Shown one piece after another: positions 12,820-25,982 of a DNA stretch of 38,860 nt. A program made the translations under genes and the position numbers. The stretch is from a virus (Duplodnaviria > Heunggongvirae > Uroviricota > Caudoviricetes). The stretch's first letter is position 1. The number at the start of each line of letters is the position of its first letter. A model generated the notes under the pieces. It made no database searches, was not told where the DNA came from, and saw nothing but the letters and a program-made list of their open reading frames with translations. The stretch lies in IMG/VR virus record IMGVR_UViG_2713896899_000004. One strand, given 5' to 3'.

Positions 12820-13018
12820 GCGGGAGAAGGAAACGCTTCATGAAATCAGTAAGTGGCCGGAGTTCCCTGAGTACTGGAAGCCTAAAACGCGGGCTAAGTT
12901 AGAGCGTTTAGGGTTGGTTGCAAACGTTTCTGAAACGAAGTGTTCGGCCAACTACCAGTTAACTGATAAAGGGAAAGTATTGCTACAGCAATTAGTAGAA
13001 TCAGGAGTGTTAAAATGA
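12803..13018 (+). CDS. Hypothetical protein
   Basis: RBS aaggag upstream of ATG; 71 aa. Confidence 0.5.
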   Translation: MIVLSKREKETLHEISKWPEFPEYWKPKTRAKLERLGLVANVSETKCSANYQLTDKGKVLLQQLVESGVLK

Positions 13019-13167
13019 TTCCATACATCTCATTAGCTTTTATGGGTGGCTTCCTTATCGGCTTCGGCATCTGTCGTGATTTAATTAAGCAGGAACTTAA
13101 AACCAAAACACTGTGCATCGGAAAGCGTGTGTATCGGGTAGTTCATGAAACAAAGGTGAAAAAATGA
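13015..13167 (+). CDS. Small single-pass membrane protein (50 aa), paralogue of 12640-12819
   Basis: ATGA overlaps on both sides; TM helix then KRVYRVVHETKVKK tail. Confidence 0.4.
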   Translation: MIPYISLAFMGGFLIGFGICRDLIKQELKTKTLCIGKRVYRVVHETKVKK

Positions 13168-13454
13168 GCAATTTAACTTCTTGGGAATGGTGGTTGGCCA
13201 CCTATTTCTTAGCGGCCGGAGTCGCATTCGCCTTTTACGTAGGTCAGTTAGTCGTAAAACTGTTGCTGATTAAATTTGCTAGTCATAAACGTATCGATGA
13301 TGGTCTGTGGCGTCTTGGCACCCTGGTGGAAACTCGCTACGGGCAACTTAAGGAGAACGAAACCATTACTATCCAAGCGAAACGATTCACTGCCACCATC
13401 ACAAGAACACCTAGTCGTAGAGTGGCCTTGATCAAAAAAGGCACAACCGAATAA
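13164..13454 (+). CDS. Small membrane protein
   Basis: N-terminal TM helix (WWLATYFLAAGVAFAFYVGQLVV); translationally coupled to upstream ORF. Confidence 0.5.
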   Translation: MSNLTSWEWWLATYFLAAGVAFAFYVGQLVVKLLLIKFASHKRIDDGLWRLGTLVETRYGQLKENETITIQAKRFTATITRTPSRRVALIKKGTTE

Positions 13455-13460
13455 AACACA

Positions 13461-13486
13461 ATGATAAGTATTTACTTACTTATCAT
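13461..13486. promoter_or_regulatory. Perfect dyad atgataagta-N6-tacttatcat (operator- or promoter-like)
   Basis: 10-bp arms are exact reverse complements; member of a dispersed ATAAGTA/TACTTAT family. Confidence 0.5.
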
Positions 13487-14246
13487 TTACGTATAAGATG
13501 ACTTTGTTTTCGTTGAGACGCGACTGTTTGAACTTAAATACAAGTGCAAACGAAGAAGTCTATCTGGCAGTAGCCTAATAAGCCAAACACCAGCGAGGTC
13601 AGTTTCCAGCCTCGTTACCGAAATGGGACACACTGAGCGAGTGTGATTGCAGAACGCAGGATAGGGCATAGACAGCCAAACCACTATGCCCTATTCGATG
13701 AAGTAACAGAATGGGCGGTTGGTATATTTTCAACTCCATATGACTCCCGGATTCTTAGCCACTGACCGCCCATCCTGTTACGTCATTTTGTTCAATTATG
13801 TCGTTTATACTGGGTTAAAAAGCGGCGACGTAGCCCGGCTGGTATGGTTAGCCAGCACACAACGTTGAGGCCATTACATTTTTATCAATTCTAAGGTTCT
13901 ATTCACAGAGATACCGGCGAGCGTTGATATGTAACATGTTGGGCAAACATTCAATCGGAGTAGTGGCCTCAACGTTGTGAAGACAGGATAGTTGTTGTAG
14001 GTTTAACCACTGTTGCCATTGGTGCCTGTTTTCACAACAAATGATTCCATACATCACATTGTATAAATTACAAAGTAGGTGCTGTCCTCAGAAACATCAT
14101 CTACTTAAAGAATTTGCCTTCTACTATTGAGCGAAGTCGAAAGCGTCTGGCACTAACGAAAAGTGCAAGTAGCGGTGCGTTTCCTGGCAGAAACTAAACC
14201 GTCGCGATTGGCACTGTTGAGTAATAAATACTGGCAGTGCCGAATT

Positions 14247-14321
14247 GATGGTGTAGCTCAGCGGTAGAGCAGTTGGCTGTTAACCAACTGGTCGGTGGTT
14301 CGAATCCACCCACCATCGCCA
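14247..14321 (+). tRNA. tRNA-Asn (anticodon GTT)
   Basis: Hand-folded cloverleaf: 7-bp acceptor gatggtg/caccatc, anticodon loop ctGTTaa, T-loop ttcgaat, 3' CCA encoded; differs from the E. coli tRNA-Asn sequence. Confidence 0.8.
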
Positions 14322-14323
14322 AT

Positions 14324-14399
14324 GCCGGTTTAGCTCAGTTGGTAGAGCGCCTGCCTTGTAAGCAGGATGTCAGCGGTTCGAGTCCGTTAACCGGCACCA
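14324..14399 (+). tRNA. tRNA-Thr (anticodon TGT)
   Basis: Acceptor gccggtt/aaccggc, D-arm gctcagttggtagagc, anticodon loop ctTGTaa, T-loop ttcgagt, CCA encoded. Confidence 0.8.
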
Positions 14400-14623
14400 A
14401 TACAACGATAAGATCATTACGGTTAATCGTCGTTCATGTGCACAATGACTGGTCGAAAGGTAGTGATCTTACCGTTGTGGTGGATTCGCAGACTGATGCG
14501 ATAGCTTTCTTGGATGTTAGGGAAATGCGGCCGCAAATCTTCCCTTTCGCGAGCGGTGATCGTCCGTAGTCCTAATTGGCTGCACCGTATGCCGGAGATT
14601 CAGTACCGGCCACCACAACGGCC

Positions 14624-14710
14624 GGAGAGTAGGGAGCATGGTGCTCAAGCGGTCTTGAAAACCGCCCCATTGCGCAAGCGATGATGGTTCGATTCCATTA
14701 CTCTCCGCCA
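14624..14710 (+). tRNA. tRNA-Ser (anticodon TGA), class II with long variable arm
   Basis: Acceptor ggagagt/actctcc, anticodon stem-loop gcggt-ctTGAaa-accgc, long variable arm, T-loop ttcgatt, CCA encoded; D-arm slightly irregular. Confidence 0.65.
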
Positions 14711-14712
14711 GA

Positions 14713-14790
14713 CACAGCGTTGAGCGGTTTGGCCTTTTAATCACCCAGATTAAGACTCCGCTAACATAAACCAGACCGCTCAACGCTGTG
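14713..14790. repeat. Long hairpin (about 20-bp stem, 38-nt loop) immediately 3' of tRNA-Ser
   Basis: cacagcgttgagcggt (14713-14728) is the exact reverse complement of 14775-14790. Confidence 0.6.
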
Positions 14791-14864
14791 ATTGACAATT
14801 ACGGCAGACGTTCTTAACCATAGCTTGCTAACATCCTAGCAACACTTTTTTCAGCGCAAAATTC

Positions 14865-14887
14865 AAAGGGGCTTCGGCCCCTTTTTT
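14865..14887. terminator. Bidirectional rho-independent terminator
   Basis: aaaggggc-ttcg-gcccc-tttttt; closes the tRNA island on the plus strand and the minus-strand ORF 14903-16165. Confidence 0.65.
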
Positions 14888-14902
14888 GTTGAACAGTGCA
14901 AT

Positions 14903-16165
14903 TTACTTTACATAGTCGCCCAGTTTTAATATTTCGCGCTTATATTCTTTAACCATGTCACAGGATTCAATGTAAATTCGATGTAAAAGACTGCCGTTAT
15001 CTTTATTTTCATTTATCTTAATTAGTGCTAATTTATATTCATAGTCATCAAATGCCACAATTAAATGGTGGCCTGGGATTATATCTTCGTCACTCTTAAA
15101 GTATATATCTTCAAGTATGTAATCTAGTTGATTAGATTTTCTTTTCTCGATGTAATCTTCAGCCATAGCTATTACATCATTCCTGTCATTTAACCTGTTT
15201 TTTTCGGAAGGCACATCTTCGTAATGTTGCACGATTGAACAACCAATAAGGCGTGGGATGTAAACGTCAAAATGAGTAACTCTATCATTCGCGGTTTTAA
15301 GTAGTTCCTCAAAGTAGTTTCTTACATGTAAAGGCAACTTCTCAAAGTAATCATTAATTATAGGAGAACAAGGAGTTTTATAATTCATAAGAACCGACGG
15401 TACGAGCTTTGGGTGTCGAAACATCCAGTCCCTTTTAACGTCCGATGGAACATAATAACTTTTAATGATATTATCAAAATAATTTATCATTCGAGATTTG
15501 AATATTTTGTTGAATCTAAGGTTTATGAATGTATCCAGATAAGGCATATTTGAATAAGCATCATCAAAAAATATTTCATCATTGAAAAAATCATATTTAT
15601 TCAATAAACAACACAGTTTTTCCGAATTAATATGTTCACAATAATCGATTTTTAATCCAAAGATAGCAATGATCAACTTCATCTGAGGTGGGATTTTAAA
15701 AATTAATTGTGACACATACGCTCTTTTTTCCTTGAGACATTCCCCATCAATATAAAATGAACCATCCACATACTCAAATATATTAATAATATGCTTCACA
15801 TACTGTATTACCTCATGCTGTCTTACCAATGGGTAATATAGTCTATGTAACTCATCGCTGTTTAAATTAATTTTGTGTTTATCGATAATTTGTTTTGCAA
15901 GAAGACATAACTCATCATGTTGATTTAATAAGGAATCAAACCATTGTTTAAATGCACTCTTTCGCATTTCGAACAATGATTCAGTTGTTAATTGAAGGGC
16001 TGAAAAAGCTGCTTTTGCACTTTTTCTCGCTTCGTAGGCATTCCATGCTGTTGCTATAAAAGCAAATGCTGTAGCCAATGTTCCAACAGTTTGACCATTT
16101 AAAACAACCCAATCCCAAAAAATGACGGTGAGCAGTAGTATAATAATGAAAATTAAAAAAGGCAT
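14903..16165 (-). CDS. AT-rich membrane-anchored protein of unknown function (candidate defence / abortive-infection cargo)
   Basis: 420-aa ORF on the opposite strand from almost all other genes; N-terminal hydrophobic helices then a large Asn/Lys/Tyr/Phe/Ile-rich soluble domain; strongly AT-rich; own terminator. Confidence 0.55.
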   Translation of the reverse strand: MPFLIFIIILLLTVIFWDWVVLNGQTVGTLATAFAFIATAWNAYEARKSAKAAFSALQLTTESLFEMRKSAFKQWFDSLLNQHDELCLLAKQIIDKHKINLNSDELHRLYYPLVRQHEVIQYVKHIINIFEYVDGSFYIDGECLKEKRAYVSQLIFKIPPQMKLIIAIFGLKIDYCEHINSEKLCCLLNKYDFFNDEIFFDDAYSNMPYLDTFINLRFNKIFKSRMINYFDNIIKSYYVPSDVKRDWMFRHPKLVPSVLMNYKTPCSPIINDYFEKLPLHVRNYFEELLKTANDRVTHFDVYIPRLIGCSIVQHYEDVPSEKNRLNDRNDVIAMAEDYIEKRKSNQLDYILEDIYFKSDEDIIPGHHLIVAFDDYEYKLALIKINENKDNGSLLHRIYIESCDMVKEYKREILKLGDYVK

Positions 16166-16339
16166 GTATGTATTTCACTCTACTAACTATAAAATATTAG
16201 GGTAATGTTAACCAAACAATGCCTTAATTAATAGATTGATCGAGGCTTTAATAGCTTTATAATGCAGACTGCAATGATAAGTATGCACATACCTATCTTC
16301 TTTGTAAGTAAAGTTGCATATCAATTCTATGAGGTAACA

Positions 16340-16585
16340 ATGACGATCACTATCTACGGACGAGATAACTGCTCATACTGCAAACGTGCGGTCGAGCTGG
16401 CGAAGCAACTAAAGGGACATGGCTACGGTGATTATGAGTACATCGACATCACCACTGCCGGTATCGACAAGGAAAAACTTAGTGAAATTGTTGGTAAACC
16501 GGTAGAGACTATCCCCCAGGTACTGATCGATGGCCAACCGATTGGCGGATACACAGAACTGGCTGCATACGTCAGCACCCTCTGA
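16340..16585 (+). CDS. Glutaredoxin / NrdH-like redoxin
   Basis: CSYC active-site motif near the N-terminus (TIYGRDNCSYCKRA); 81 aa; start set at ATG 16340 with RBS gagg; followed by a terminator. Confidence 0.6.
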   Translation: MTITIYGRDNCSYCKRAVELAKQLKGHGYGDYEYIDITTAGIDKEKLSEIVGKPVETIPQVLIDGQPIGGYTELAAYVSTL

Positions 16586-16588
16586 TTT

Positions 16589-16614
16589 AAACGGCTCACA
16601 GGAGCCGTTTTTTA
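16589..16614 (+). terminator. Rho-independent terminator
   Basis: acggctc-acag-gagccgt followed by TTTTTT. Confidence 0.65.
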
Positions 16615-16665
16615 TTCCCACCAAACTCACTCCTGTTTCCCTTAAAATTCAAAAAACAACGTCTA

Positions 16666-16698
16666 AATGATTCCATACCTACTATGTATGGAATCATT
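16666..16698. repeat. Perfect palindrome aatgattccatac-ctactat-gtatggaatcatt upstream of integrase (candidate att or integrase-binding site)
   Basis: 13-bp arms are exact reverse complements; the core aaatgattccatac also occurs at 13012-13028 and 14037-14053. Confidence 0.5.
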
Positions 16699-16796
16699 AC
16701 TGAAAATGAGTTACTTTTACTCTTGATCCTATAAGAATCTATGCCTAATATACTGTTTACTTATACAGTGAATCGGCGTAACTCGGTGATTGTCAT

Positions 16797-17900
16797 ATGA
16801 AAAATAGCTTTGACAGAGCGCGCGCTGCGGAGAACACCTCAAAAGAGGCGATTGAGTATCTCGAAAGAGCATCTCAAATGCAGGCCGTTATGATCTCGCA
16901 GGTTAGCAATGACATGAGATTCTCGGACGCTTTCATGTTATTCACTCGCTTATCTCTGCTGATAACCAGACGTCGGCCAGAGATCGCTGTTCATTGTATT
17001 TTGATACATGTTTTGCCGCACATTGCCGATGTAAAAGTAAGTGACATTAATAGGTTCATGGTGAACCAGCTGGTCAACCCACTAATACTGGATGGCAAAA
17101 TTGTTATGGGCCGCCGCGTTTTCTCTCTGATGAAGCAGTTCCTTAGCTGGTGCGCCTTCCAGGGGATGATAGACGTGTCACCGTTAAACGATATGTCACT
17201 AAACAAAGTTGCCGGTGGCGCAAAGCCCACACCTCGCGAGCGGAAGCTGACCGACGCAGAGGTATGGGTGTTCTGGAATATATGGGACTACTTCAATGTG
17301 TGCGCTGGTACAAAATGGGCGGCCAGGCTGTGTCTTGTATCAGCAAGACGACCTGACGAAGTACTGCGGGCTAAAAAAAGTGAGTTCAATCTTAAGCGTG
17401 GAGTTTGGAATCAAGGCAAGAGAAACAAGTCAGCACGTGAGCATTCGCTGCCTTTAAGCACATTAATGCGCACATGCATTGAAGAGTTGTTCGAATACGG
17501 TAAAGACAGCCAGTGGCTCGTGCCTTCGAATAAAAAAATCGGGAAAGACCTTCCTATGTCTAAAGTGGCAATAGCCCAGGCATTACGTCGTATTCTGGAA
17601 CGACCAGAACTGATGGAGCTTGAGCCATTTACACCCCGAGATTTGCGCCGTACTGCGCGTAGTTACTTCCCAGCATTAGGCATAAGCCAGGAGGTATCAC
17701 GCAAAATCATGAACCACAGTCTTGAGGGGATAGATCGGGTATACGATCGACACGATTATATGGATGAGATGCGAGACGCCTTAGAAAGTTTCTCGACGTA
17801 CATCGCATCAATCGTAGAGCAACCGGATTTAGACGAAATTGACCACAAATTCAAGGGAGATCGTCTATCGACAGAGCTTATTCGTGTAAATTTTTCATAG
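16797..17900 (+). CDS. Tyrosine recombinase / integrase (P4-like C-terminal catalytic region)
   Basis: C-terminal FTPRDLRRTARS ... NHSLEG ... VYDRHDYMDEMR matches the Arg/His/Tyr catalytic pattern of P4-type integrases; N-terminus atypical. Confidence 0.65.
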   Translation: MKNSFDRARAAENTSKEAIEYLERASQMQAVMISQVSNDMRFSDAFMLFTRLSLLITRRRPEIAVHCILIHVLPHIADVKVSDINRFMVNQLVNPLILDGKIVMGRRVFSLMKQFLSWCAFQGMIDVSPLNDMSLNKVAGGAKPTPRERKLTDAEVWVFWNIWDYFNVCAGTKWAARLCLVSARRPDEVLRAKKSEFNLKRGVWNQGKRNKSAREHSLPLSTLMRTCIEELFEYGKDSQWLVPSNKKIGKDLPMSKVAIAQALRRILERPELMELEPFTPRDLRRTARSYFPALGISQEVSRKIMNHSLEGIDRVYDRHDYMDEMRDALESFSTYIASIVEQPDLDEIDHKFKGDRLSTELIRVNFS

Positions 17901-18281
17901 AGACTTTATGGCCTCAACAACCTTTTGTGATGCGCCTTTCTCTTTACCGAATCGCTCGTTATATGCAGCAAGAACCTGTTTTTCGTCCTCGTTAAGAGGA
18001 GCGGTGCCTTCTTTGTATAAAAATGCTGCGAGTTCAGGTTGGCGTTCTTCCAGCACCATCATCATAAGACGACTTGGCTCAATACCCAGCGCCAGCGCCA
18101 ACGGACGAACCTTATCGATAGGCAAAGGAATTTTGCCACTTTTAATTAAAGAAAGGTTGTTGGCATTTTTATAACCAATAAGTCTGGCTATTTGGGCCTG
18201 ACTCATAGGTGAGGATTCAATCAGCCCTGCGATAAAAGCAGCATAGCGACTTTCTATAAATTCAATCTTGTTGTCAGACAT
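17895..18281 (-). CDS. HTH (XRE/Cro-CI type) transcriptional regulator, candidate repressor
   Basis: N-terminal MSQAQIARLIGYKNANNLSLIKSG helix-turn-helix; divergent from downstream plus-strand genes; no protease domain (128 aa). Confidence 0.6.
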   Translation of the reverse strand: MSDNKIEFIESRYAAFIAGLIESSPMSQAQIARLIGYKNANNLSLIKSGKIPLPIDKVRPLALALGIEPSRLMMMVLEERQPELAAFLYKEGTAPLNEDEKQVLAAYNERFGKEKGASQKVVEAIKSL

Positions 18282-18532
18282 TGTTACAACCTTTGCGCGT
18301 TTAATTCTCTATGGTAAGTGCTTACCGATATTACATCAAAGGTTAGGGTTGTAAAGCTATTATCATTTTTTTCGGCAGGCACTTGTAAGACCGAGCAAAG
18401 GTCCATGCATGGAGAAAAACTAGCCCAAAATAGGTAAGAAAATTAACTTGCATCTGATATAGATGTATTCAGTATTGATACAAATTTTAGTAGTATTCCT
18501 TACCATAGTATAAGTTAGAATGGATTGATTGA
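18282..18532. promoter_or_regulatory. Divergent control region between repressor and plus-strand operon, with GGTAAG/CTTACC dyads
   Basis: 251-bp intergenic region containing palindrome ggtaag-tg-cttacc (18314-18327) and further ggtaag / ataagtta half-sites. Confidence 0.45.
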
Positions 18533-18745
18533 ATGAAAACCACTATTTCCAGCCTAATCGCTCTTGAGATCGGACACGTACAGAAATTAGCTGATGAGTG
18601 TGTAGCTGACATCCTCACCGATCTACCGAATGAGCAGATTCAGGTTGGTGTGAATGACACAACTGGCTTTATATTCGAACTTAACAACAAACGCTTCACG
18701 CTTCTCAATACCGGCTCCGGGTCTTTAGCCGTCAGAATCTGTTAA
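18533..18745 (+). CDS. Hypothetical small protein (possible Cro-like partner by position)
   Basis: 70-aa ORF divergent from the HTH regulator; weak RBS. Confidence 0.35.
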   Translation: MKTTISSLIALEIGHVQKLADECVADILTDLPNEQIQVGVNDTTGFIFELNNKRFTLLNTGSGSLAVRIC

Positions 18746-22463: not shown

Positions 22464-25400
22464 ATGAAGGCACTGATGGTTCGAACTGACTTCTCACTTG
22501 GGGAGTCGGCTCTAAAAGCAGAAAACGCGGTGAAGATTGCCAGAGAAGCTGGCTACACCGCTGTAATTTCAGCAGATAGCATGAATATTGCGAGTGTTAT
22601 TCCACTACAACGTGCCGCTGGTGACGACATGGCGGTTATTTGTGGTGTGAAACTAAACATCGTTGATGATCCCACATACGAGCACCGGGCTAAACTTGCT
22701 AAAGAATCTAAGGGATGTATGGAATCATTAGAGCGAGGACGTAACTACTCGTTTACCGCTCTAATTAAAAATGAGCAAGGATATCGCGACATCTGCGAAC
22801 TAATGACGGTGGCCAACACACGAGAACAGTTCTACTTTGTACCGCGTCTCTCGCTCGAACAGTTGGTTTCTACATATGCCAAAGGCAACATCATCCTGCT
22901 CACTTCCGACATCGGTAGCGTGTTCCAACGCAACGATTTTGCAAAAATCATAAGCACACTGATTACAGCGGGTGGAAAAGACAACTTCTATAGTGTGGTT
23001 TATCCGCACCCTACCCCATTCTACGACCAGATTAACGTCCGGGCGATGAAAGTCGCCAGCGCACTGAAAATAGAGCCAGTAGCGTTCTATCCCGCTTATT
23101 ACGAATCGATCGACGATGCAGACATTAAAGACATTGCGCACATGGTTACGAACAACATCAAAATCGACCAGCCGCATCGTCTGCGTATCCCCCACCAGCG
23201 AGATAACGCCGTCAATGGTCGCCGCCATCTCCTTGAGGCGCTGAAAGCCTTCTCCGTTCGCATGGATGTGCCGGTAACAGCTGCAATGGCCTCAACAACG
23301 CAGGATACCATTATCGATGCCTGCACATGGCGCTGGCATGAATTGCCACCAGCACTGCCAAAGATGGCAGACGACGAGCCTGCAACGCTGATGAAACTGG
23401 CCGTTGCTGGGCTGCGTAAACGTCTTACCACAAAAGAGTTTGGCTACACACCACCGGCTTCTGAGAACAGGATTTATGTTGAACGGCTTAAGTACGAAAT
23501 GGACACGCTGACTCGCCTGGGATTTTGTGGTTACTTCCTGATGGTACGCGATCTGATGAATCACAGCCGTGAAACTGGCATTCCTGTCGGGCCTGGTCGT
23601 GGTTCCTCTGCCGGTTCTCTGGTGGCGTGGTGCATAGGCATAACCAACGTCGACCCAATCCGTCACGGTCTTCTGTTTGAGCGTTTCATCAACCCTGAGC
23701 GTCTCGACTTGCCGGATGCGGACTTGGACTTCAGCCAGGCACGTCGCCATGAGGTGATCGAGTATCTGAATGAACGCTACGGCGAAGATTACGTTGCAGG
23801 CATTCCGAACTTCACCTACCTGGGCGCAGCCTCTGCACTACGTGACACCGCTCGTATTTATGGTGTGGAGTCCGCAGATATGGCGGTATCAAAAGAACTG
23901 AAGAACGTCGAGGATGATAGCCTTCCATTGGAAGAACTGCGCGAACAACTGGCAAGTCTCGACAAATACGCAACAAAATATCCTGATGCATTCAATGCAG
24001 CCTGCAAGTTACAAAGCCTTATGCGTGGCTTTGGTAGACATGCGGCAGGGATGATCGTAGCAGGTGTTCCTCTGACAGAACGCACACCGGTTGAGCGCCG
24101 TGGTGACGCGCGTTGTATCGCATTTGACAAGCGTTACTGCGAGGCTATGGGCCTAATTAAGCTGGACGTGCTTGGCCTGGCAACTCTCGATTTGCTCGAT
24201 AGTGCAAAACGCTACATAAAAGAGAACACAGGTGAAGATATCAATCTTGATGCCATTTCTCTTGAGGATCGCAAGGTGCTGGATGGTTTTGCTGCTGGGT
24301 ACACTCAAGGTGTTTTCCAGCTTGAATCAGGCCCAATGCGCAAGCTGCTTAAAGATTTAGGTGGTGGAATTGAGCCAATGAGCTTTAAAACGGTTGTTGC
24401 TACGACTGCGCTCTTCCGGCCGGGGCCAATTCAGTCAGGCATGTTGGATGATTATGTTTCTGTCGCCAAAGGCTTTATGACGCCGGAATCATTACACCCC
24501 GTTCTTGATGAACTTACCGCAGAAACAAATGGCGTGATTCTCTATCAGGAACAGACGATGAACGCGACTCGATTGCTTGCTGGCTTCACAATGGCTGAAG
24601 CTGACGGTGTTCGTAAAGCGATCGGCAAAAAAGACATGGAAAAAATGAAGAGCATGGGCGAGAAGTTCATCGTTCAGGCTCAAGCTGGCTGGATAGACGT
24701 TGAGCTGGAAGATGGCACTACACAGCGCATTCACCGTGCGGAACATTTTAAATGCGAAGACGGAACTCTGAAAACTGTCGAAGAGGCACTTGAGTACGGC
24801 GCAAAACTACCTATAAACGCAGTACGCGTTACAGCGTCACATCCAGGGCTATCAGAGATGAAAGCGAAGGAGATCTGGACCGCATTCGAAAAGAATGGTG
24901 CCTACCAGTTCAACAAATCACACTCTGTTGCTTACTCCTTAATCAGTTATCAATCTATGTGGTTGAAAACTCATTATCCCGCAGAGTTTTTCGCTGCTGC
25001 TCTCACTATTCTTGGCGAAGATAAACACCAGGGGCTGGTTAAAGATGCGCTGACCTATGGTATTCGCGTATTGCCACCAGACGTTAACGTGTCATCTAAC
25101 CGAATCGAGATCCGCACGCTTGAAGATGGCAGCCAGGTGCTGTATGCGCCCTTCTCTGCTGTGAAAGGTTGTTCTGAGAATGGCTGCCAGGCCATCATGA
25201 GAGCGCGAGAAAAAGTTGGCGGCAAATTCGAGTCACTGGCGCAATTCGAAGAAGCTGTCGAGAAACGTGCCTGTAATAGTCGAGTGTGCGAATCACTGCA
25301 AAAAGTAGGGGCGTTTGCATCCATCGAGCCAGGTAGTCTGCCAGCAACTGATCCAGAGCGTCTCCGCGACCAAGCTGAATTGATGGGAAACCTTGTCATA

Positions 25401-25982
25401 GACGCAGTTAAAGCCTCACGTCCGTTTGAGATGAACCCCAAACGTTCGGCTGAGATTAACGTGCTCATGACACGGATGGCGGCTGAAATGGGATTAGGTG
25501 ATGAACTAATCCGCCCTAGCATTGGCATTAAGCCGAAAATCATGATCATTCTGGACAATGCAAACGGCAATGATGCTCGAACCGGTTACTTTATGGAGAA
25601 CGGATACGACGATTTTAAGGCCAAGCTGTTGACGGCTGGGGATTTGCGCATGGGCGATCTCTATGTCACAGGCGTTTGCAAAAAGGTGAAAGACAAAGAA
25701 AAGGACTACACCAAAGACGAGATCGGCCAGTTCACCGACTTTATGCGTGAAGAGATCAATCTGGTGCGCCCGACCTATGTGCTGACGTGTGGCAGCCGGG
25801 CAACGGCATTGTTTAACAACAAAAACAAGCCATCCGATTTGGTCGGCAGGAAGGAGTACCTTCCAGACCTTGACGTTACTGTCTTTTACGGGTTTAACCC
25901 CAACATTCTTTACTTCAGACCTGAAGAGGGAGAACGACTAGAAGCGATATTAGCCGACGTAGCAGAAACCATTAAGACGTGA
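22464..25982 (+). CDS. dnaE: DNA polymerase III alpha subunit (family C, DnaE type)
   Basis: 1172 aa; GPGRGSSAGSLVAWCIGITNVDPI ... FERFINPERLDLPDADLDF matches the DnaE palm/catalytic region; PHP-like N-terminus. Confidence 0.8.
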   Translation: MKALMVRTDFSLGESALKAENAVKIAREAGYTAVISADSMNIASVIPLQRAAGDDMAVICGVKLNIVDDPTYEHRAKLAKESKGCMESLERGRNYSFTALIKNEQGYRDICELMTVANTREQFYFVPRLSLEQLVSTYAKGNIILLTSDIGSVFQRNDFAKIISTLITAGGKDNFYSVVYPHPTPFYDQINVRAMKVASALKIEPVAFYPAYYESIDDADIKDIAHMVTNNIKIDQPHRLRIPHQRDNAVNGRRHLLEALKAFSVRMDVPVTAAMASTTQDTIIDACTWRWHELPPALPKMADDEPATLMKLAVAGLRKRLTTKEFGYTPPASENRIYVERLKYEMDTLTRLGFCGYFLMVRDLMNHSRETGIPVGPGRGSSAGSLVAWCIGITNVDPIRHGLLFERFINPERLDLPDADLDFSQARRHEVIEYLNERYGEDYVAGIPNFTYLGAASALRDTARIYGVESADMAVSKELKNVEDDSLPLEELREQLASLDKYATKYPDAFNAACKLQSLMRGFGRHAAGMIVAGVPLTERTPVERRGDARCIAFDKRYCEAMGLIKLDVLGLATLDLLDSAKRYIKENTGEDINLDAISLEDRKVLDGFAAGYTQGVFQLESGPMRKLLKDLGGGIEPMSFKTVVATTALFRPGPIQSGMLDDYVSVAKGFMTPESLHPVLDELTAETNGVILYQEQTMNATRLLAGFTMAEADGVRKAIGKKDMEKMKSMGEKFIVQAQAGWIDVELEDGTTQRIHRAEHFKCEDGTLKTVEEALEYGAKLPINAVRVTASHPGLSEMKAKEIWTAFEKNGAYQFNKSHSVAYSLISYQSMWLKTHYPAEFFAAALTILGEDKHQGLVKDALTYGIRVLPPDVNVSSNRIEIRTLEDGSQVLYAPFSAVKGCSENGCQAIMRAREKVGGKFESLAQFEEAVEKRACNSRVCESLQKVGAFASIEPGSLPATDPERLRDQAELMGNLVIDAVKASRPFEMNPKRSAEINVLMTRMAAEMGLGDELIRPSIGIKPKIMIILDNANGNDARTGYFMENGYDDFKAKLLTAGDLRMGDLYVTGVCKKVKDKEKDYTKDEIGQFTDFMREEINLVRPTYVLTCGSRATALFNNKNKPSDLVGRKEYLPDLDVTVFYGFNPNILYFRPEEGERLEAILADVAETIKT

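Follow-up and report, generated by a model that had tools for sequence, protein, structure and literature searches.

The stretch analyzed here, 38,860 nucleotides of a virus of the class Caudoviricetes (IMG/VR record IMGVR_UViG_2713896899_000004; hereafter, the window), carries a 33-bp palindrome beside the gene (int) of a tyrosine recombinase, or "integrase" (Int). This palindrome is very probably the crossover (core) site of the adjacent recombinase. Three further single copies of its arm are dispersed through the phage-plasmid backbone and, to judge from their conservation, are selected half-sites and not insertion scars. Int and its single symmetric core site, borne on a replicon never found integrated, have the anatomy of a multimer-resolution module like Cre/loxP, and the single copies are most likely bound by the same enzyme. 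Taken as a whole, the proposal of a core site that would serve plasmid resolution, together with selected half-sites to which Int would bind, stands at about even chances of being right.

The window is an Escherichia coli SSU5-like phage-plasmid of the SSU5/pHCM2/pMT1 type, and its region is 96-98% identical to the E. coli SSU5-like phage-plasmids CMS-2020a, Cyrano (= pLF82), and PhiR41_1. This group is among the commonest phage-plasmid families of Enterobacterales and includes pMT1 of Yersinia pestis, pHCM2 of Salmonella Typhi, and carriers of resistance genes. Gene order runs from helicase, primase, and ligase genes through small open reading frames (ORFs) and a tRNA island to a variable cargo region, and continues with int, a convergent helix-turn-helix (HTH) gene, a 70-aa ORF, and CobT-like and AAA genes up to dnaE. 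Comparisons drew on 101 IMG/VR contigs retrieved by the palindrome pattern with a free spacer, on 832 PLSDB plasmids bearing the palindrome 35-mer or close variants (from Klebsiella, Escherichia, Enterobacter, Yersinia pestis, Salmonella, Citrobacter, and Cronobacter), and, for chromosomal versus plasmid placement, on 5,426 complete E. coli genomes searched for the int region. The palindrome is a recombinase core site of a known kind that appears previously undescribed in the searchable literature and is widespread in an important plasmid family. No description of it was found there: publications about SSU5-like elements and Cre-type recombinases are silent on the site, and a full-text search for the 12-mer returned unrelated papers only.

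The palindrome and its tyrosine recombinase

Two perfect inverted 13-bp arms enclose an asymmetric 7-bp spacer, and the palindrome ends 98 bp before the int start codon (Table 1). This 13-7-13 layout falls within the range of two inverted 11-14-bp arms and a 6-8-bp asymmetric spacer placed beside the gene. In every context examined, including non-phage plasmids, the palindrome lies 24-110 bp upstream of the gene of this integrase family. Across the 101 IMG/VR contigs and the 832 plasmids the arms are invariant and the spacer is variable, with at least 12 forms (among the contigs, CTACTAT in 37, CTATTAA in 26, TTGGTAG in 20, TTGTAAG in 7, and others more rarely). Homologues of int at 43-50% identity, found on phage-plasmids of Xenorhabdus, Providencia, and Photorhabdus and on three metabolic-gene-rich contigs resembling non-phage plasmids, are preceded at the same 24-110 bp by a palindrome of the same design (11-12-bp arms, 7-bp spacer). 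The arms of these distant homologues read (A)TGACTCCAGAC, two changes away from ATGATTCCATAC, and Photorhabdus has an intermediate arm pair, TGACTCCAGAT and TGATTCCAGAC. Conserved arms that co-vary with the recombinase are thus combined with a free spacer. Because three non-phage contigs (L113, L122, and L124) have int and the palindrome with no HTH neighbour, the palindrome travels with int and not with the HTH gene. Mechanistically, two recombinase monomers would occupy the inverted 12-13-bp arms, with strand exchange taking place across the 7-bp spacer.

The spacer can also occur reverse-complemented: PhiR41_1 reads ATAGTAG where an IMG/VR contig with the same cargo and 99.85% identical flanks reads CTACTAT (window 16679-16685; L002 5014-5020; L045). 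Given the near identity of the flanks, the spacer changes orientation over short evolutionary times. Conservative recombination cannot account for a spacer turned around relative to one flank, but either a template switch across the hairpin or two antiparallel recombination events in succession could. The palindrome was also considered as an intrinsic terminator, and this was rejected because it has no T-run and a separate terminator lies nearby (Table 1).

Int has the catalytic residues of a tyrosine recombinase (Arg-Lys-His/Arg-Arg-His/Trp-Tyr). An alignment of 28 homologues shows R185, K211, R284, and Y316 without variation and H307 conserved in at least 90%, and the enzyme looks catalytically competent on these grounds. 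A second Pfam match, to the P4-type central domain (Phage_int_M), falls below the Pfam cut-off. The AlphaFold (AF2) model has a predicted local distance difference test score (pLDDT) of 83.8, and its best fold match in the PDB (Foldseek) is the lambda Int dimer on the COC' core site (1z1b, E 1.7e-7); Tn1549 Int and Xer proteins come next, and Cre appears at rank 42 or lower (E about 0.04-0.09). A sequence search of the PDB with Int gave no match, and its distant sequence relatives are P4/CP4-57-type integrases. By these comparisons, Int is of the lambda/P4-type lineage without a detectable arm-binding domain, and it therefore lies outside the Cre clade.

Neither Pfam nor NCBIfam detected an arm-binding domain in Int, nor was there a match to PF13356, though distant relatives carry one. 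Up to about residue 122 the model consists of helices only, except for two single-residue bridge assignments, so that no beta-sheet arm-binding domain is evident in the modelled N-terminus. A weak NCBIfam match to PRK09692 (P4-type) covers only profile positions 137-393, and its start at position 137 suggests that the arm-binding part is missing. No arm-type direct repeats were found within about 300 bp of the palindrome. Int thus combines the absence of a detectable arm-binding domain with the absence of arm-type sites.

Among the complete E. coli genomes, the int region occurred 253 times, always on a plasmid and never on a chromosome. The original prediction, made by a model from the letters of the window alone, had suggested that the host attB could be located by a search of host genomes; the search for the int region returned no integrated form and hence no attB. 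Very large contigs with close Int homologues, which would be a sign of integration, were likewise not encountered, only plasmid-sized contigs of ~106 kb and two short contigs. Having neither an attL/attR-flanked chromosomal copy nor an arm-binding domain with arm-type sites, the system departs from the integrative attP/Int type of lambda and P4. It has in common with lambda/P4 integrases and the COC' site of attP the best structural match, the Phage_int_M domain, and a 7-bp overlap between inverted core-type sites; it differs in its perfectly symmetric arms, as well as in the missing N-terminal domain, arm-type repeats, and integrated form.

The layout resembles that of Cre/loxP of P1. Here, as in that system (and in Dre/rox, VCre, Vika, Nigri, Panto, and YR), a phage-plasmid carries a recombinase gene beside its own site, with multimer resolution as the presumed task. 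Both sites comprise two 13-bp inverted arms and a short asymmetric spacer, with no arm-type sites or arm-binding domain detected. In contrast to loxP, the spacer measures 7 bp instead of 8, and Int, not being closest to Cre, does not belong to the Cre clade proper with its 13-8-13 sites. Cre is also not known to have LexA control or dispersed half-sites. A published screen for Cre-type systems used 13-8-13 sites, and its main text does not contain the sequence of this palindrome. By analogy, int and the palindrome would form a self-contained plasmid module whose likeliest task is to convert plasmid multimers to monomers, as Cre/loxP does in P1. A 33-bp site with its own enzyme would explain why an element that is never integrated retains an integrase. 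With a 7-bp spacer and a recombinase of non-Cre lineage, the pair might also supply a lox-like tool, perhaps orthogonal to Cre.

Expression of the module would be under LexA (SOS) control. Every one of the 89 loci in the four main spacer lineages has a box with a CTGT-N8-ACAG core, and none of the 12 loci of minor lineages does. Since the box lies at the promoter (Table 1), int is probably induced by the SOS response.

Isolated half-sites in the phage-plasmid backbone

The window holds five perfect copies of AATGATTCCATAC, at 13014(+), 14040(+), 16666(+), 16686(-), and 22717(-). Those at 16666 and 16686 pair up as the palindrome, and that at 22717 lies within dnaE. The original prediction had described the palindrome exactly and had placed it about 100 bp upstream of the integrase start; the start codon is at 16797. 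It had also reported a 17-mer pair, which exists, although its coordinates were 1-2 nt too low: AAATGATTCCATACATC occurs at 13013-13029 and 14039-14055. The repeat it had counted is real, but a fifth perfect 13-mer, at 22717-22729 (-) in the dnaE-like ORF 22464-25982, had escaped notice. Its statement that the copies far exceed chance is borne out, given that the 14-mer with up to two mismatches has 5 matches against a shuffle mean of 0.48 and that 0 of 100 shuffles reached 5. Beyond the five perfect 13-mers, the window holds only scattered chance matches with three mismatches. Cyrano (108 kb) and Klebsiella phage pJN2-26 (110 kb), both complete genomes, have the same five copies and none elsewhere; the sole extra, in pJN2-26, is a near-copy with one mismatch inside int, for which about 0.5 copies with up to one mismatch would be expected by chance in these genomes.

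The near-copy within int is an observation apart. It concerns the 15-mer discussed below, lies at window positions 17400-17416 on the same strand as the dnaE copy, and reads GATGTATGGAATCAAGG (encoding DVWNQG), with 14 of 15 positions matching in CTATTAA lineages; in Klebsiella-type loci it lies at ~+730 from the palindrome. The version in the window is more diverged (GGAGTTTGGAATCAAGG). It may be a by-product of the conserved DVWNQG protein motif.

The three single copies, here called up1, up2, and down (Table 1), have in common the 15-mer ATGATTCCATACATC, that is, the arm followed by ATC. Their layout is fixed in the 101 loci, with two plus-strand copies ~1.0 kb apart upstream of the palindrome and one minus-strand copy 6.05-6.34 kb downstream in dnaE. 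Their places are fixed clade-wide as well: up1 is at the start codon of a conserved ORF of 50 aa, up2 lies ~180-200 bp ahead of tRNA-Asn, and down falls on dnaE codons 84-89. A by-eye comparison found no partner arm beside any of them, 0-3 of 12 positions matching where a second arm would lie. The 15-mer has a mean pairwise identity of 98.7-99.3%, compared with 51-67% in the 40-nt flanks. For up1, the core is 99.3% identical and the flanks 65-67% among 18 distinct relatives; for up2, the values are 99.1% and 51-59%. This conservation is not an artefact of how the loci were retrieved, because, among loci in the correct orientation that extend into dnaE, 33 of 33 have the dnaE copy with at most one mismatch.

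The dnaE copy offers a separate view of the same constraint. Third-codon positions across the site have one allele each, whereas neighbouring codons have 3-4 alleles. The encoded loop reads GCMES, and outgroups without the site have EELLPI or ETQLPV instead. Judging from these patterns, it is the DNA word that constrains the protein here and not the reverse. Chance and coding constraint were rejected as sources of the repeat on the evidence of the shuffles, of the conservation of copies relative to flanks, and of the dnaE codons. Because the copies are conserved and fixed, with none elsewhere and with no precise deletions (for two adjacent direct-copy pairs) or inversions, the single copies are, on present comparisons, selected half-sites. 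Selection on a putative protein-binding DNA word would accordingly override synonymous drift, in one case within a polymerase gene.

Int is the simplest candidate to bind these words, since the 12-mer is identical to the arms of the int-linked palindrome. The recombinase predicted to bind the palindrome would most likely also bind the isolated half-sites (12-bp arm plus ATC) as a monomer, in a regulatory or architectural role. Isolated single sites of a tyrosine recombinase have their closest precedent, by analogy, in TnpI of Tn5401, whose core site lies upstream of tnpI and whose binding motif recurs once near either end of the transposon (PMC7157771). As here, TnpI/IRS systems (Tn5401, Tn4430) have a core inverted repeat upstream of the gene and single 12-bp motif copies far off, the latter being regulatory and not recombinational for TnpI (PMC7157771). 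The likeness is one of site layout; unlike in those transposons, the single copies here lie in a phage-plasmid backbone, one of them in a polymerase gene, and the core lacks adjacent accessory direct repeats.

Several points weigh against this combination of resolution module and Int-bound half-sites. SOS control is unusual for a resolvase. Nor is it obvious what a half-site within an essential phage gene would contribute to resolution. The ATC of the single copies never adjoins the arms of the palindrome. In outgroups whose palindrome has the other arm sequence, the 10 kb to each side are free of isolated copies. Finally, SSU5, which has lost int, the HTH gene, and the palindrome, retains up1 and the dnaE copy perfectly and the non-coding up2 with one change, a state compatible with recent loss of int and equally with a binder other than Int. 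The up2 copy has decayed in a tRNA-less lineage, which is compatible with several models.

A Tus/Ter-type polar barrier, like replication-related polarity in general, was rejected: by eye, only 9 of 14 positions match the Ter core GTTGTAAC, the invariant core is absent, and there is no switch in GC skew at the site. The skew is monotonic because nearly all genes lie on one strand.

Alternative explanations

One alternative, which we regard as unlikely, gives the recombinase a second, non-recombinational job, for which half-sites would have arisen in coding as well as non-coding DNA, including a tolerant loop of the polymerase, and been retained by selection. SOS-induced Int monomers would bind the half-sites and modulate phage replication and gene expression, for example in a switch between plasmid and lytic states. 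In another form of this idea, single-strand exchanges made by Int at half-sites would feed the T4-like recombination-dependent replication machinery encoded by these phages. The half-sites point to a hitherto unstudied regulatory link between an SOS-induced recombinase and phage replication genes.

The original prediction had taken all copies as att-like crossover sites and the segment they bracket as acquired in modular fashion. In its full form, this reading would have the integrase acquire or exchange the bracketed segments as integrons do cassettes or as in pdif modules, and it now appears improbable. Part of it holds: the int-adjacent palindrome is very probably a core site, and the DNA from the tRNA genes to the palindrome is variable cargo ending exactly at the left arm, which marks the edge of the cargo hotspot of this family. 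Homology breakpoints cluster in two intervals, a left one at 14320-14880 and a right one at 16640-16679. Homology to the window begins at 16640-16679 in 64 of 100 comparison loci, often exactly at the arm, and several E. coli plasmids and PhiR41_1 also break there; among relatives, up2 and the palindrome lie anywhere from 1.2 to 6.3 kb apart. The upstream copies are, moreover, direct repeats of the left arm. The other part fails. Related elements, which the original prediction had proposed to compare, do vary in the bracketed segment, but the copies themselves sit at fixed, conserved positions, in conserved genes clade-wide and without a second arm. On its left, the cargo is bounded by the tRNA genes or the terminator at 14865-14884, not by up2. 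No extra copies were found in the variable cargo of the 101 loci, and no inverted segments in these loci or in 3 complete genomes. Synthetic junction queries against PLSDB (about 190 E. coli-lineage plasmids) found no precise deletion junctions joining up2 to the palindrome or up1 to up2. Chromosomal integration is likewise absent, and no steps in single-nucleotide polymorphism density, which would be a sign of module swapping between close relatives, were seen at the copies.

The nucleotides following the arm bear on the same question. Within one genome, the copies have different 7-nt stretches after the arm, so they are unlikely to be recombination partners. Set against this, the up1 and dnaE copies of Cyrano and PhiR41_1 are followed by the same 7 nt (ATCTCAT), which might reflect conversion, and PhiR41_1 has a different 5.9-kb cargo with a plus-strand 15-mer to its left and the palindrome to its right. 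Both facts lend weak support to some exchange of DNA. The context of the extra 15-mer of PhiR41_1 had no match in PLSDB.

Two known systems bear comparison here. XerCD/dif and the pdif modules of Acinetobacter plasmids are similar in their short inverted-arm sites (11-6-11) and in the presumed task of multimer resolution, and several copies can bracket cargo (PMC5790767). Here, by contrast, the recombinase is element-encoded, each genome has one full site, and the half-sites do not bracket variable DNA. Integrons (IntI/attI) resemble the present locus in a LexA-controlled recombinase, a primary site just upstream of its gene, and variable cargo alongside. IntI is reportedly under LexA control (a finding ascribed to Guerin et al., 2009), and the predicted LexA box at the int promoter speaks for the att-like reading to that extent. 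Unlike in integrons, the cargo has no attC-like elements or repeated sites and is not made of units each bounded by a recombination site, and the site here is a perfect duplex palindrome.

A decidedly unlikely alternative is that the copies are operators of a regulator other than Int, with the HTH protein as a prophage repressor, comparable to C1 of P1 with its dispersed, asymmetric operators, and the palindrome serving as a double operator. The XRE-type HTH gene does adjoin int in convergent orientation, and the copies are asymmetric and dispersed near replication genes. The persistence of isolated copies in int-less SSU5, and the ATC extension found on singletons and not on the palindrome, would also suit such a model. 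However, SSU5 lacks the HTH gene too, and the palindrome stays with int on plasmids without an HTH neighbour. The HTH protein falls to 43-69% identity among relatives while the 12-mer remains invariant. The 12-13/7/12-13 layout is typical of tyrosine recombinase sites and not of XRE operators. C1-type sites would be expected over promoters and together with their repressor, whereas the palindrome lies upstream of the int -35 element and not over the promoter, and neither a scan nor inspection by eye found promoter-like sequence at the single copies. The HTH protein is therefore a weaker candidate binder than Int.

Pairing between RNAs offers a further, highly improbable explanation, in which a processed leader RNA of the tRNA operon would pair over 15 nt with dnaE mRNA at codons 84-89, to which the 15-mer is perfectly complementary, and repress the polymerase in trans, like the C4 RNA of P1. 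All genes here are transcribed rightward, so that up1 and up2 are in sense orientation and the dnaE copy is antisense to both. The up2 copy is unpaired at the 5' edge of a conserved leader RNA with compensatory changes, the only change of up2 in SSU5 (A to G) would retain a G:U pair, and up2 has decayed where tRNAs were lost. Against this, the identity with the int-linked palindrome arms would go unexplained, up1 has the same sense as up2 and so cannot be its target, a T-to-C variant in up2 would break the pairing, and no Rfam family was matched.

It is scarcely credible that the isolated copies are asymmetric sites of the sfx type, between which the recombinase would invert DNA as in the Rci/sfx shufflons of IncI plasmids: R64 sfx does pair a variable 12-bp arm with a conserved one of the same length across a 7-bp spacer (PMC11852207), and the window likewise offers one conserved 12-bp arm in both orientations, a 7-bp spacer in the full site, and ~50 residues after the catalytic tyrosine of Int, but here kilobases separate the copies, which lie in essential genes, neither the 101 loci nor the complete genomes show an inverted arrangement, inversion between a plus and a minus copy would split dnaE, and only 3 of the 7 nt after the arm (ATC) are conserved, whereas the sfx core is conserved. 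Since the 7-bp core is not conserved and inversions are absent, the defining features of a shufflon are lacking.

Features of the locus and neighbouring observations

Table 1. Positions of the features discussed, in window coordinates.
Feature	Position	Strand	Remarks
Half-site up1	13015..13029	+	ATGATTCCATACATC; overlaps ATGA stop/start junction and codons 1-5 (MIPYI) of 50-aa ORF 13015-13167
Half-site up2	14041..14055	+	ATGATTCCATACATC; non-coding, ~190 bp upstream of tRNA-Asn, at 5' edge of conserved structured leader
tRNA island (Asn, Thr, Ser)	14247..14710	+	downstream of up2
Variable cargo region of this lineage	14886..16665	.	from homology breakpoints and up2-palindrome distance
AT-rich ORF of the cargo	14903-16165	-	
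Glutaredoxin gene of the cargo	16340-16585	+	
Terminator of the cargo	16589-16610		
Palindromic core site (very probable)	16666..16698	.	arm AATGATTCCATAC 16666-16678, spacer CTACTAT 16679-16685, arm GTATGGAATCATT 16686-16698
int promoter, read from sequence	16723..16770	+	-35 TTGATC 16723-16728, 17-bp gap, -10 TAATAT 16746-16751
LexA box (predicted)	16751-16770		TACTGTTTACTTATACAGTG; directly after -10; CTGT-N8-ACAG core, 16/20 consensus positions
Tyrosine recombinase gene (int)	16797..17900	+	367 aa; PF00589, E 4.7e-10
HTH (XRE-type) regulator gene	17895..18281	-	convergent with int, 6-nt overlap; rival candidate binder
Half-site down	22714..22728	-	reads GATGTATGGAATCAT on + strand; in dnaE, encodes G-C-M-E-S in variable protein loop

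Within the cargo, the AT-rich ORF encodes 420 aa and matches phrog_18168; otherwise, it has only a weak PtuB-like PADLOC match (E 5e-4), and it may be a defence or abortive-infection gene. In PhiR41_1 (80169-81093; L108 30169-31093), the segment from ligase to tRNA is replaced by an insertion sequence (IS) remnant, an orphan 15-mer, and the 5.9-kb cargo, which has an AraC-type regulator. A related contig (L045 1-579) has an IS end at the same border. From these remnants, IS elements also shape the cargo hotspot.

Upstream of tRNA-Asn, window positions 13455-14246 comprise ~800 bp of conserved non-coding DNA with many long hairpins. The leader between up2 and the tRNA has a conserved GCACT...AGTGC hairpin, two pairs of which show compensatory changes in Klebsiella lineages. 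An Rfam search matched only the three tRNAs and no family for the leader. The region may encode stable RNAs co-processed with the tRNAs.

On the other side of int, the stretch at ~17800-18400, which runs from the end of int through the HTH gene to the intergenic DNA ahead of the 70-aa ORF, diverges most among E. coli relatives that are otherwise 97-99% identical. The 70-aa ORF protein also diverges in PhiR41_1, at 86% identity compared with 98-99% for Int and the HTH protein. This part of the window (17895-18745) may be an immunity or regulatory region. In the type phage, Salmonella phage SSU5 (NC_018843; L114 11219-11455), which is without the palindrome, int, the HTH gene, and the 70-aa ORF, the CobT-like gene follows directly after tRNA-Asn. 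In a Xenorhabdus relative (L111 14481-16802), the AAA_5 (CobS-like) gene contains a LAGLIDADG_3 domain, which is probably an intein or a homing endonuclease insertion.

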